Source: an uncultured Oscillospiraceae bacterium (GTDB lineage Bacteria; Bacillota; Clostridia; Oscillospirales; Oscillospiraceae). Taken from it: DNA of 64,000 nucleotides. The stretch spans positions 153 through 64,152 of the forward strand of contig CALXDD010000012.1 in assembly GCA_944386985.1 (NCBI GenBank). The letters are read 5' to 3'. Positions 47,949 through 59,371 of this stretch are shown piece by piece (the stretch's first letter is position 1; each line of letters starts with the position of its first letter). Under the pieces are notes generated by a model. That model was not told the origin of the DNA. It ran no database searches and worked only from the letters and a program-made list of their open reading frames with translations. Both the position numbers and the translations under genes were made by a program.

Positions 47949-48671
47949 CTATATGTTATTATTTGACTCCAGAGAATTTAATATGCTTTCCAACGGATCC
48001 CAGAAGCAATATCTCCGGATCTCCTTCGACAGCTCCGGGTGCTGGCGCAATTGACGTACGATCACCGGGAATTCTGTGCATCCAAGAATCACGTTGGAGG
48101 ACGGAAATCCAGACAGGAAGTCCACCAACCGAAGAAGAATCTCTTCGTTCACGTTGTTTTGCTTTACCGCCTCAATAAAAAGTCTCAATGTGGGATACTG
48201 CTTTTCTGTGGGGCTGGTGCAGTCGATATGAAAATTCGCCAGACGCAGGCCGTACAGGTTCTTTGCCAAAGTTCCCTCCGCAGCCAGGACGGTGACGTCA
48301 TGGACCTGTGCTGACTGCAATTCGGCGCCCAGCGTATCCACCATATGAATCACTCGCGGCTCTGCTTCAGGGACCACTTGGAATACGTCCTCCAGGAAGC
48401 AATGGGCCGCGCCACACACCAGAATAATTTTTTCTACATTTTCCCGCAGCATCAGCCGCATGGACTGCGCCATCGCCTGTACAATTTCCTCCCGGCCTGA
48501 GCCGCTCAGGAGGCATCTGGTTCTGCTGGGCATTTTGAAATTGTTGTCCATGACGATGCGGGGATAATTTCGTTCACAGTCTGAACGGAATCTGATAAAG
48601 AGGCGCGATAAGAAATCCAAGGTTGCAAATGCGCCGAAGCCGCCTATAATGCCAATGCTGTCATACTTCAT
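47949..48671 (-). CDS. Aspartate/glutamate racemase family protein
   Basis: 240 aa. GIIGGFG start, with Cys motifs LVCGAAHCF and ILGCTEFPV. Confidence 0.85.
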   Translation of the reverse strand: MKYDSIGIIGGFGAFATLDFLSRLFIRFRSDCERNYPRIVMDNNFKMPSRTRCLLSGSGREEIVQAMAQSMRLMLRENVEKIILVCGAAHCFLEDVFQVVPEAEPRVIHMVDTLGAELQSAQVHDVTVLAAEGTLAKNLYGLRLANFHIDCTSPTEKQYPTLRLFIEAVKQNNVNEEILLRLVDFLSGFPSSNVILGCTEFPVIVRQLRQHPELSKEIRRYCFWDPLESILNSLESNNNI

Positions 48672-48849
48672 CGGTCATGCCTTTCTCCCTTTCCAAGGCC
48701 AGCGCAAAGAGTTCCGGATCAATCTTTTCTCTCTGATACGACTGGCTTGAAACGCAGCTGCAGCAAAATCCCATCCAAGCCAGGGCGTTGGTCCATCGCA
48801 TCTCCCGTGTAACTTCTCTTGATAGCGTTGTGCTAAATTTATTGTTTCC

Positions 48850-49515
48850 TTACCAGCAATAACCATATTGGGGGTCAGACAGCACCGCCTGTGCATATTG
48901 AATATCCTTCGGCGTGTCAATTTCCAAACGCTCCACAAGGCACGCCGGAAGCGGCAAAAAATGTTCCAGCTGTTGATAGACATATGTATTTTTATCTGCC
49001 AGCAGCTTGGAGTGTACAACAGCAATATTGGACCACTCATATTCACTTCTGGCCGTTCGGGAGAAGGAGTGAATACAGTGATTTTGGTCCAGGTGAACAA
49101 AGACCGCGTCCTCACTGTTCACCGGAGCGATTCCTATCACCGTCTCTCCCTGTGCATAGTCCAGGAAAGCAGACAGGCTCTCCCGCTGCGGAATAATATC
49201 CCCGTCCAGCAGAAGAAACGGCTCATCCAGATCTTTGACGCCCAGATAGTAGCTTTGCAGCGTGTTGGTCGTGGCGTAATCCCGGTTGACAACGATCTCA
49301 ATGTCAGGCCGCAGCGCCTTTGCGGCGGCGGCGGCTTCTTCCCCATGGTAGCCCACAACAATGCGTACATGGGGGAATTCACGCAGCAATTCCAACTGGT
49401 AGGAGAGGATACTGCGTCCGTTGACCTCAACAAGGGCTTTAGGAATGCCGCGCTGCAGTCTGCTCCCCATTCCCGCGGCTGCAATGACCGCATATCGAAC
49501 GGAGTCTTTCATCAC
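48850..49515 (-). CDS. Nucleotidyltransferase (LicC/cytidylyltransferase-like)
   Basis: 221 aa. The N-terminal AVIAAAGMGSRL...PKALV is an NTP-transferase signature. The start overlaps the methyltransferase stop (GTG at 49515 or ATG at 49512). Confidence 0.85.
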   Translation of the reverse strand: MMKDSVRYAVIAAAGMGSRLQRGIPKALVEVNGRSILSYQLELLREFPHVRIVVGYHGEEAAAAAKALRPDIEIVVNRDYATTNTLQSYYLGVKDLDEPFLLLDGDIIPQRESLSAFLDYAQGETVIGIAPVNSEDAVFVHLDQNHCIHSFSRTARSEYEWSNIAVVHSKLLADKNTYVYQQLEHFLPLPACLVERLEIDTPKDIQYAQAVLSDPQYGYCW

Positions 49516-50258
49516 TTCATCCCCAAATTCTTTCTTAGAATAAAATAGAATTGTGCCGTTTCCTTGCGGTTATTGAGGGCGGCATTGTCAAACATCGGAC
49601 CATGCTCACAGAGGGTAAAGGCCGGCGCATTTTCGGTAAGCATGGCCAGATATTCCTCCTTGGTCCGGTAAATGGTATTGTACTCATGCTGCAGCTCCTC
49701 GGAGTAGAACTCCTTCAGGGTAAGCCGGTCAGACAGGCCCATCGGCTCACGCAGGTATACAACCGCATGGTCCTGCGTCAGCCCGTCCAGCGCTTGAAAA
49801 ACTTGTTTGACATCTCTGTCATTCAAATACATCATGACGCCGGAAATAATGACGTGCGTGGCCGGAGGAATCTGATTTTTGTGATAAAATTCTTCAATGT
49901 GGGGGGCTGAAACACATGCAAACGTAAAATTTGATTTCTTATTCCTCTGCTTTGAAATGCTTATGAGTTCTTCTGAAAAATCGCATCCCAAATAGGCGTC
50001 TATTTCCTGTGAAATGGCATCTGCCCAGCGCCCTACGCCACAGCCAATATCCAAAACGCGGGAATGGCTGTCAAGCTGGAGCAACGGCAGGATCTTTGCG
50101 ATTTCGATCTGATTTCTCTCTTCGGCAATCTCCGGATGATTGTCCTGATACATAGTGGAGATGTACGGATGCTCAGGATCATATTTTTTCGCTCTGTCCG
50201 CATAGAAGACCTTCGTCTTTTCATATGCAATCTCTACCTGTTCACCAACAATTCTCAT
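49512..50258 (-). CDS. Class I SAM-dependent methyltransferase
   Basis: 248 aa. Motif I VLDIGCGVGRWA. Confidence 0.9.
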   Translation of the reverse strand: MRIVGEQVEIAYEKTKVFYADRAKKYDPEHPYISTMYQDNHPEIAEERNQIEIAKILPLLQLDSHSRVLDIGCGVGRWADAISQEIDAYLGCDFSEELISISKQRNKKSNFTFACVSAPHIEEFYHKNQIPPATHVIISGVMMYLNDRDVKQVFQALDGLTQDHAVVYLREPMGLSDRLTLKEFYSEELQHEYNTIYRTKEEYLAMLTENAPAFTLCEHGPMFDNAALNNRKETAQFYFILRKNLGMK

Positions 50259-50315
50259 GCAAGCAATTCCTTTTCATTTTTGTAAAACCACTCTCATCCG
50301 CCATATGCGGCCGGA

Positions 50316-57831: not shown

Positions 57832-58305
57832 TCAGGCCCCGGTCTGTTCATGGCGGGCCGTATTCTCCTGAGCGCTGCCGCTTTGGGCGGCCTCTATGGC
57901 GGCGAATCTGCCGCACAGGGCTTTCAGCTTTTCCTGTACCCCTGCGCTTCCATGCGCTGCCATCCACTCGTCCAGATGATCCGCAACCTCCGCCAGCTCC
58001 CGCAGCGTCTCTTCTCTTTCTTCCGCTGCGCTTTGGCGCTGCCGTTCACGCTCGGCTTTCTCTTCCAGCCGCTCCGCGTGACGTTTCGCGTCGTATCTGC
58101 GCCTGGCCATACTTTTCGGCCGCTTTTCCAGCAGGCCGTCCGGACGTTCGCCCGAGCGCTCGTGAACCTCGCCCCGGAGAACGGAAACCTCCCTGGGAGC
58201 CTTCACCGACACGCAAAAAGCCGAGCCGGACTGCTTGAACACCTGCACGGTGATGTCCTCCCCGATGGTGAGGTACTCGCCGGATTTCAGTTGCAGCGAG
58301 AGCAT
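57832..58305 (-). CDS. CsrA-like RNA-binding protein with a ~95-aa charged, helical C-terminal extension
   Basis: Start trimmed to MLSLQLKSGEYLTIGEDITVQVFKQSGSAFCVSVKAPREVSVLRGEVHER, which matches the CsrA pattern ML.L.R..GE...IGD.I.V.V......V.IGI.AP..V.V.R.E. Strong RBS GAAGGAGA. 157 aa versus about 70-75 aa for canonical CsrA. Confidence 0.8.
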   Translation of the reverse strand: MLSLQLKSGEYLTIGEDITVQVFKQSGSAFCVSVKAPREVSVLRGEVHERSGERPDGLLEKRPKSMARRRYDAKRHAERLEEKAERERQRQSAAEEREETLRELAEVADHLDEWMAAHGSAGVQEKLKALCGRFAAIEAAQSGSAQENTARHEQTGA

Positions 58306-58360
58306 AAAAGTCTCCTTCTCCAGCCGGGCGCTTCCCTGCGCCGTGCGGGTTTGCGCTTGT

Positions 58361-58492
58361 GTAGGTTTACAAATACACTTTTTCAAACTGCCTTCACTAT
58401 TTCTTTCGGCTGAATTTTTAGAAAATTAAGGTCTCTGACAGAATTTTTTTATTCGCCTGATCAGTTTGTAAACCTACACTTTTTCAAACTGC
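58361..58492. repeat. Inverted and direct repeat array between the recombinase and the CsrA-like gene
   Basis: Perfect 13-bp inverted repeat: GTAGGTTTACAAA (58361-58373) / TTTGTAAACCTAC (58465-58477). Perfect 18-bp direct repeat TACACTTTTTCAAACTGC at 58374-58391 and 58475-58492. Confidence 0.9.
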
Positions 58493-59101
58493 TTATTGCA
58501 TTGCTTTCTGTTTCTCAAATTTCACGGCTTTTGCGTAGAAAGTGTCCTTCGGCATCTCACACAGCTCCGCCGCCTGGCGAAGCGTCAGCTTCTTGCCCCG
58601 CCACGCCCGGTGTACCTGCTGGAAATTGTCCGGCAGAGGCCGGGGCGGACGGCCAAAGCGGACGCCCCGCGCTTTGGCCGCCGCAATGCCCTCGGCCTGA
58701 CGCTGGCGAATGCTGTCCCGCTCGTTTTCCGCCGCAAAGCTCAAAACCTGCAGGACGATGTCGGCGAGGAACGTCCCCATCAGATCCTTACCGCGCCGGG
58801 TATCCAGCAGCGGCATATCCAGCACCACGATATCTGCGCCTTTTTCCTTGGTGATGAGCCGCCACTGCTTCAAAATCTCCTCATAGTTCCTGCCCAGACG
58901 GTCAATGCTCTTGATAAAAAGCAGATCGTCTTTTTTTAGCTTGTGAAGCAGATTTTTGTACTGTGGCCGTTCAAAATCCTTACCCGATTGCTTGTCCAGA
59001 TAGAGATCCTTTTCCGCAATCCCGGCTTCCCGCAGCGCGATGCGCTGCCGGTCCTCATTTTGGTCTTTGCTGCTGACCCGGATGTATCCGTATTTTGTCA
59101 A
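58493..59101 (-). CDS. Small serine recombinase (resolvase/invertase family)
   Basis: 202 aa. TTG start after AAAGGAGG. Catalytic motif [17 protein letters not shown]-terminal HTH ([17 protein letters not shown]). Confidence 0.9.
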
Positions 59102-59371
59102 AGTAGTTCCTCCTTTACCATGTCATAGGCAAATCTCCTAACTTTTTAGTTTACAATAAAATAATCTCCCGTTCCTACCCACCAGGTTCCTGCCCGGGAA
59201 GAAGAAACGGGAGGCTGATCCAATTTTGAACGCCGGAAAAGCGGGCTTTCGCCGCCTGCAGAAGCGCCCATGAATCCCTCCGCTGCATACCGCCGGCTGA
59301 AAAAGATCCCTGTGGAAAGCAATCTGTCTGAGCCGTGTTTTGAGTTTCCGCGAAAAGTCATTTTCTACAGC

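Follow-up and report, generated by a model that had tools for sequence, protein, structure and literature searches.

The window analyzed in this study, 64,000 nucleotides from an uncultured Oscillospiraceae bacterium (GenBank assembly GCA_944386985.1, contig CALXDD010000012.1, positions 153 to 64,152), carries on its minus strand an 11-kb block of ten open reading frames (ORFs) arranged around a flagellin gene (fliC). This cassette is probably a chromosomal member of the csrA-associated TldR family and a phase-variable, RNA-guided flagellin-isoform switch. Judged by its sequence, it carries every defining feature of that family that was tested: a hin gene with a FliA-type promoter inverton of about 120 bp, csrA, a RuvC-mutated tldR, a guide RNA and fliC, with guide matches inside of a fliC ORF. 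The 121-bp segment inverts in natural populations of this species. The central concept of such a switch is already in the literature (PMC10705468; PMC13418256), and the locus is a new example rather than a new system. The gene list and coordinates of the initial annotation were borne out for all ten ORFs, and the same gene starts were obtained with an independent gene caller on contig L021, which is 98.9% identical (202, 157, 388, 270, 712 amino acids (aa) and onward). The features of the cassette, in the direction of transcription, are as follows.

58493-59101, minus strand: hin-like small serine recombinase, 202 aa, TTG start (PF00239 Resolvase domain, E 1.5e-29; called as 202 aa on L021)
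58359-58479, no strand: 121-bp invertible segment (15-nt inverted repeats and a 91-nt core)
58404-58429, minus strand: sigma-28/FliA (SigD)-type promoter, TTAA-N15-GCCGAAA (consensus match within the inverton)
57832-58305, minus strand: CsrA-like RNA-binding protein, 157 aa (PF02599, E 6.9e-13, residues 1-50)
56557-57723, minus strand: TldR, predicted nuclease-dead TnpB homologue, 388 aa (NF040570, 228.6 bits; triad N-R-D)
56349-56560, minus strand: predicted guide-RNA scaffold, omega-RNA-like (conserved over 16 loci, with covariation)
56335-56348, minus strand: predicted guide CAGCATAATATTAT (directly 3' of the conserved scaffold end)
56144-56334, minus strand: T-rich tract, then the fliC leader (alignment of 15 fliC upstream regions)
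55331-56143, minus strand: short flagellin, 270 aa (PF00669 and PF00700)
55230-55285, minus strand: double hairpin 3' of fliC (the first hairpin terminator-like)
47949-55190, minus strand: six-gene putative flagellin modification set (domain matches; GC content 0.48-0.54)

The csrA gene ends 108 bp before tldR, and tldR lies 413 bp ahead of the fliC start, so that tldR adjoins both csrA and a flagellin gene within 3 kb, as in the csrA-associated TldRs of PMC10705468 and PMC13418256. Compared with ISDra2 TnpB (PDB 8bf8), the RuvC residues D191 and E278 are replaced by N (VGLNYS) and R (VCVRGAD), respectively, and D361 is kept (NRDEN). The same substitutions were found on alignment with the active D-E-D TnpB of Flavonifractor plautii and ten relatives, and the substituted RuvC residues noticed in the initial annotation are accordingly D191N and E278R by two alignments. 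From the loss of two of the three RuvC residues we infer that TldR is nuclease-dead. Triads of close relatives read N-R-E or N-R-D, and distant relatives have H, S or A at these sites. Further domains recognized in the protein were HTH_OrfB, OrfB_IS605 and a Cas12f1-like TNB. The best TldR matches (84-86% aa identity) were found in Candidatus Flavonifractor merdavium, Flavonifractor sp. An306 and an Intestinimonas metagenome-assembled genome; identity to Oscillibacter and other Oscillospiraceae TldRs was 60-68%. TldR is also 85% identical to WP_204859603.1 of Pseudoflavonifractor phocaeensis, which is given in Table S2 of PMC13418256 with residues N, R, E and as TRUE for both csrA and flagellin.

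A scan of species-representative genomes yielded 20 loci. Of the 16 with a TldR identity of 60-86%, most have csrA and fliC beside tldR, and many have hin upstream; since the neighborhood recurs in most of these related loci, the arrangement is not a product of chance. The gene order hin-csrA-tldR-fliC, which may be called the Flavonifractor type, is found in the window, L001 and L003, and the order hin-tldR-csrA-fliC (Oscillibacter type, with csrA after the guide RNA) in L004-L016 and L022. Some variation on these orders was observed. L012 has csrA on both sides, L008 carries two csrA copies and extra hin fragments, and L022 has the same glycosyltransferase family 2 (GT2) gene and a short flagellin of 91% identity together with the tldR-csrA order. 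In L015 (Oscillibacter sp. 1-3, NZ_KE159703.1, 9906-11118) tldR is frameshifted and a single copy of the inverton repeat is present, as if the invertible segment had been deleted; this is probably the frameshifted locus mentioned in PMC13418256.

About 210 nt 3' of the tldR stop codon are conserved across the 16 loci. Compensatory changes were seen in 18 of the 32 pairs of their RNAalifold consensus, and the window sequence folds with a minimum free energy of -107.9 kcal/mol (z = -2.55). These are the first ~210 nt of the 413-bp tldR-fliC spacer, which the initial annotation had described as some 200 nt of GC-rich structured DNA. The 5' boundary of the scaffold is uncertain and may reach into the 3' end of tldR. 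It has been reported that RNase III cuts an expanded stem of the guide RNA (PMC13418256), and a long stem at 56441-56495 is a candidate for its counterpart here. In an Rfam search of 47000-60500 at permissive E-values, the scaffold matched no known RNA family, and the sole match was a chance microRNA hit on the hairpin after fliC. One locus (L005, ~7870-8030) has an insertion of ~165 nt in the scaffold, between the conserved CCCGAAGCCC and the terminal hairpin, and its guide is intact.

The scaffold ends in a near-invariant GTCCACT, which is followed by CAGCATAATATTAT (56348-56335). This sequence corresponds to flagellin codons 4-8 (Q-H-N-I-M) with specific wobble bases. In all loci the guide directly follows the scaffold end and varies between loci mostly at wobble positions; beyond ~12-14 nt after the scaffold end, the loci diverge. 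The meaningful part is thus confined to the first 12-14 nt after the scaffold (CAGCATAATATTAT). The AT-rich stretch ATAATATTATTTTTTGTTTTGATTT was considered as a promoter-derived guide and rejected; its T-rich part is not conserved between loci. The T-rich tract after the guide (TTTTTTGTTTTGATTT) has a 16-nt exact match at 18437-18452 of the window, within the ribosome-binding region of a lipoprotein-like gene on the minus strand; this match was judged to be due to chance for the same reason.

A target would be expected to match CAGCATAATATT. The initial annotation had proposed a search for a guide match near flagellar promoters; the predicted target instead lies at the 5' end of flagellin ORFs. 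On 21 metagenome contigs, most of them high in GC, flagellin ORFs start with an exact protospacer in the context ATG-MGN-ATH-CAGCATAATATTATGGC. Several of these flagellin genes adjoin csrA/tldR, and others have no regulators nearby. The G-N-A-T-H ahead of the protospacer is a candidate target-adjacent motif (TAM). The adjacent fliC of the cassette reads CAA-CAC-AAC-ATC, with four synonymous mismatches to the guide at positions 3, 6, 9 and 12. A perfect 12-nt match to the own fliC was found in 0 of 24 loci versus 13% of non-self pairs; since related loci were compared and some of them had been chosen by the pattern, the statistic is only suggestive of guides that avoid their own fliC.

The recombinase is closest among solved structures to Sin/Bin3 and to the Gin DNA-invertase, and Gin (3uj3) matches it over its full length (residues 4-191). 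The spacer between hin and csrA, which the initial annotation had described as repeat-rich and 187 bp long, is exactly of that length and does contain repeats: perfect 15-nt inverted repeats (58359-58373 and 58465-58479) bound the 121-bp segment, and hin lies wholly outside of it. Within the segment, TTAA-N15-GCCGAAA (58429-58404, minus strand) is the sole sigma-28/FliA-type match in the 64 kb, where 0.08 would be expected by chance. In the window this promoter is directed at csrA-tldR (ON orientation), and FliA-dependent transcription would be expected to start ~8 nt downstream of GCCGAAAG. The element CTTAAT-N14/15-GCCGA(A/T)A(T/G) is also present in the invertons of other loci, three of which carry the exact SigD-type -10 box GCCGATAT.

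Both orientations of the segment were observed. Between species, the inverton core of Flavonifractor sp. An306 (L003) is reverse-complemented relative to the window. For comparison within the species, contigs were taken as conspecific because they encode an identical CsrA protein. Seven of these (including L055-57 and L062-64), L021 and the window are in the ON orientation. In L059 the core is exactly inverted with identical flanks; L058 is broken inside the inverted core, and L060 and L061 start at the right-hand repeat. Since both orientations occur at identical flanks in the same species, the segment inverts in nature at this locus, and public assemblies alone show the hin inverton at this very locus in both states. 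The earlier suggestion that the recombinase may make the cassette switchable is supported by this invertible promoter beside hin.

Several minor observations concern the inverton. CAGTTTGAAAAAGTGTA is found twice, once just beyond the left repeat and once just within the right one, as part of a 34-nt direct repeat (79%; window 58462-58491 and 58374-58407; also seen in L059 and L003). When the segment is OFF, these copies are opposed and make a perfect 17-bp hairpin directly behind the stop codon of hin, which they do not do when it is ON. The hairpin may be a terminator, or a regulatory structure, that depends on orientation. The FliA-type promoter is aimed at hin, away from tldR, in most reference assemblies of related species (L002-L009, L022); this is presumed to be the OFF state and would give transcription antisense to hin. 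A promoter directed at csrA-tldR was seen in the window and L001. Short-read contigs of the same species (L048-L051, L060, L061) break off within the conserved 3' part of fliC or precisely at an inverton repeat. Assemblers stop at repeats and mixed orientations, and such contig ends point indirectly to flagellin paralogues and to a population that is heterogeneous for the switch.

The CsrA-like protein consists of a CsrA fold (residues 1-50) and a charged tail of ~100 aa. It scored 48.8 bits against a Pfam gathering threshold of 27, and 39.6 bits against the NCBIfam equivalog cut-off of 73. On inspection, the motif APREVSVLRGEV keeps an arginine which we take to be the equivalent of R44 of Escherichia coli CsrA. 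In its N-terminal region the protein is closely similar to the CsrAs of Fpl3 and Isp given in Table S3 of PMC13418256. In the fliC leader a conserved hairpin was found at ~56292-56324, a GGA in a hairpin loop at 56208-56210 (stem 56197-56222), and a second GGA in the Shine-Dalgarno sequence at 56154-56156. In the alignment of 15 upstream regions, the conserved hairpin, loop GGA and Shine-Dalgarno GGA were common to all cassette fliC genes; the leader fold has a z-score of -2.85. The layout, as predicted sites, fits control by CsrA, and it resembles the stem-loop CsrA motif presented in PMC13418256.

The flagellin is the only one in the window and consists of the D0/D1 helices only, without a large variable domain. 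A look-up of its exact sequence gave no recorded entry. The double hairpin that the initial annotation had placed after fliC was recovered; its first hairpin has an 11-bp all-GC stem followed by a T-rich tail (55285-55260). None of the ten cassette ORFs matches FliW.

The initial annotation was not aware of a description of a recombinase, a CsrA-like protein and a TnpB-like protein beside a flagellin with its own modification set in a Clostridia-like genome. This claim of novelty fails because the architecture has been published for gut Clostridia between 2023 and 2026 (PMC10705468; PMC13418256, section 11). A csrA- and flagellin-associated Clostridial TldR group has been described (Wiegand et al., preprint, PMC10705468), and csrA-associated TldRs have been described in Flavonifractor and Oscillibacter (PMC10705468; PMC13418256). 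It has been shown that TldR guides target alternative flagellin genes inside fliC ORFs (Walker, Richard et al., Nat Microbiol, 2026; PMC13418256). The same paper covers RNA immunoprecipitation sequencing (RIP-seq) of CsrA on the fliC 5' untranslated region, RIP-seq and chromatin immunoprecipitation sequencing for homologues, and an Oscillibacter strain with four cross-targeting loci. It also reports hin upstream of most loci and inversions of ~120 bp with a FliA-dependent promoter in F. plautii (PMC13418256). There are also differences. The triad is N-R-D here and N-R-E in the listed close relatives, csrA precedes tldR (Flavonifractor type) instead of following it (Oscillibacter type), and the flagellin is short (270 aa). 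A downstream six-gene modification set is present here and is not mentioned in the available portions of PMC10705468 and PMC13418256.

The prophage fliCP-TldR systems of Enterobacteriaceae share with the cassette a nuclease-dead TnpB with a fixed guide, encoded beside its own flagellin gene and repressing a competing flagellin. These systems differ in being phage-borne, in lacking csrA and a hin promoter inverton, and in belonging to a separate TldR clade. Their guide targets the promoter region of the host fliC, whereas the guide of the cassette matches the start of an ORF.

Salmonella Hin/hix-fljBA is another system in which a serine invertase flips a promoter and the ON state combines an alternative flagellin module with a repressor of the other flagellin. 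The invertible segment of Salmonella is ~1 kb long and contains hin, and the Salmonella and Mu paradigm includes a recombinase gene inside the invertible segment and a Fis-dependent enhancer. Here, in contrast, the segment is 121 bp long with hin outside, and the co-expressed repressors would be an RNA-guided dead nuclease and a CsrA homologue instead of FljA. With the CsrA-FliW-Hag system of Bacillus subtilis the cassette shares the CsrA fold and GGA motifs in the leader hairpin and in the flagellin Shine-Dalgarno sequence; it differs in having no fliW among its ORFs and in the charged tail of its CsrA.

A mechanism can be proposed from published homologues and the anatomy of the locus. In the ON state, TldR and its guide RNA would bind paralogous fliC ORFs at their 5' end, where these read CAG-CAT-AAT-ATT, and block their transcription, and the CsrA-like protein would bind GGA motifs in fliC leaders and block translation. 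The short flagellin of the cassette would escape the guide, be made, and be decorated by the products of the adjacent glycan genes. A flip to OFF would silence csrA-tldR and release the other flagellins. The initial annotation had hypothesized such dual silencing of resident flagellins, transcriptional and translational. As a mechanism this hypothesis has good support from a TldR with a guide made of fliC codons, the presumed R44 equivalent and the GGA motifs of the leader; a target in the same genome is predicted.

Some of the observations count against a flagellin-isoform switch. The window contains neither a second flagellin nor a guide match within its 64 kb, and scans for sigma-70 and sigma-28 consensus sequences revealed no convincing separate fliC promoter. 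A T-rich tract stands 3' of the guide, ahead of fliC. The third RuvC residue, D361, is retained in TldR. The self-avoidance statistic draws on related, non-independent loci, and in some loci a single position separates the own fliC from the guide.

The possibility that the TnpB-like gene is an ordinary IS200/IS605 insertion sequence (IS) passenger, beside a flagellin gene by chance and with a homing omega-RNA, has already been largely refuted and is extremely improbable. The protein does score as a member of the TnpB family (NF040570, 228.6 bits) and is 40-49% identical to D-E-D or D-E-N relatives (L017, F. plautii TnpB), but its RuvC D191 and E278 are replaced in place of an intact D-E-D triad. 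The family search of the ORFs of the block found no TnpA ORF between hin and fliC. The tldR gene has a single copy within the 64-kb window, and its 90%-identity cluster has 14 members, each on at most 8 contigs; these findings together mean that it is not a multi-copy IS. Instead of the many identical IS copies that the initial annotation had named as an outcome that would overturn its hypothesis, one copy in the window, a small cluster and fixed synteny were found. In most of the 16 related loci the gene stays linked to csrA, hin and fliC. Its guide is not a variable flank but codes for flagellin and is conserved between loci. A similarly poor candidate, if slightly less so, is a recombinase that acts as the resolvase or integrase of a mobile element that brought the block in, without any regulatory role. 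Its best structure matches do include Sin/Bin3 and gamma-delta resolvases, the glycan genes are lower in GC, and a tRNA-3'-like fragment lies just upstream of hin. Against this, the adjacent 121-bp segment is inverted with identical flanks in same-species assemblies, the arrangement of hin and inverton is seen again at most related loci, and none of the 22 contigs showed an empty site.

It is also conceivable, if unlikely, that the cassette regulates its own adjacent fliC in a feedback like that of FliW-CsrA-Hag, with the inverton turning a single flagellin locus on and off. The adjacent leader with its loop GGA and Shine-Dalgarno GGA would suit such feedback, as would the loci of the L003, L006, L009, L015 and L025 type, in which the own fliC is one mismatch from the guide. 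In the window, however, the own fliC departs from the guide at four of its first 12 positions, 3 and 6 among them, and positions 1-6 were found in published work to be the seed required for repression by a related TldR. Homologues target alternative flagellin genes (PMC13418256). Self-regulation of the adjacent leader by CsrA, alongside action in trans, is possible.

Within the isoform-switch reading, a more specific and tentative proposal can be made: perhaps the 121-bp inverton is the only promoter of the 11-kb block, and self is told from non-self solely by the wobble bases of flagellin codons 4-7. If so, one flip would co-switch the flagellin isoform and a glycan pathway like that of Clostridioides difficile type A, including a racemase, and the same flip would co-switch the RNA-guided transcriptional silencer and the translational silencer of rival flagellins. 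The available portions of PMC10705468 and PMC13418256 mention neither a glycosylation island linked to the switch nor discrimination by a wobble code.

The six genes downstream of fliC have a GC content of 0.48-0.54, versus ~0.60 for most of the window, in agreement with the lower GC noted in the initial annotation. Their products, in the direction of transcription, are listed below.

55190-53052, minus strand: GT2 glycosyltransferase with a long C-terminal region (family match)
52965-51772, minus strand: 397-aa protein with no family hit beyond a weak PF27429
51758-50316, minus strand: TagF-like glycerophosphotransferase, Glyphos_transf (family match)
50258-49512, minus strand: S-adenosylmethionine (SAM) methyltransferase (family match)
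49515-48850, minus strand: nucleoside triphosphate transferase (family match)
48671-47949, minus strand: Asp/Glu-type racemase (CuyB-like, 114.7 bits, below the cut-off of 190)

The set resembles the C. difficile type A cluster cd0240-cd0244 (PMC10714395), which likewise lies downstream of fliC and, at the level of Pfam domains, likewise encodes a GT2, a TagF-like phosphotransferase, a SAM methyltransferase and a nucleotidyltransferase. The parallel to CD0240, CD0244, CD0243 and CD0242 is one of Pfam class alone. In contrast to the type A cluster, no gene with a CD0241-like phosphoserine-phosphatase fold was recognized in the cassette, which adds the CuyB-like racemase and the 397-aa protein. 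By analogy, these genes hint at a phosphodiester-linked glycan that possibly contains a D-amino acid. The modification set may be the least-described aspect of the locus.

With this locus, the published RNA-guided flagellin switches gain a member from an uncultured, Flavonifractor/Intestinimonas-like lineage of the gut. Flagellin paralogues may be discriminated by a guide of 12-14 nt via synonymous codon choice at the start of the ORF, and a flagellin-specific glycan pathway may belong to the switched module. Flagellin identity and glycosylation affect recognition by Toll-like receptor 5, phage susceptibility and gut colonization, and cassettes of this kind are therefore relevant to host-microbe interactions.

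The initial annotation had suggested that the cassette was acquired horizontally. This was not supported: no empty site was found, as every one of the 22 same-species contigs with the downstream flanking gene has the cassette at this position. Acquisition is hinted at only by the lower GC of the glycan genes. The upstream flanking gene was present on three contigs, which do not extend far enough to show presence or absence of the cassette.

Other features of the region were also observed. A 687-aa ORF runs antisense across tldR and csrA (56350-58413, plus strand); nothing supports it, and spurious ORFs of this kind typically arise in GC-rich DNA. Just upstream of hin, at 59406-59432 on the minus strand, lies a fragment that resembles the 3' end of a tRNA, with T-arm, acceptor strand and CCA (GGCGGTTCAAATCCGTCCGGCAGCCCA), and it is followed by a terminator-like hairpin and T-run at ~59355-59400. 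ARAGORN detected no tRNA or tmRNA over the window, the tRNA-3'-like fragment notwithstanding. The fragment could be the remnant of an old attachment site.

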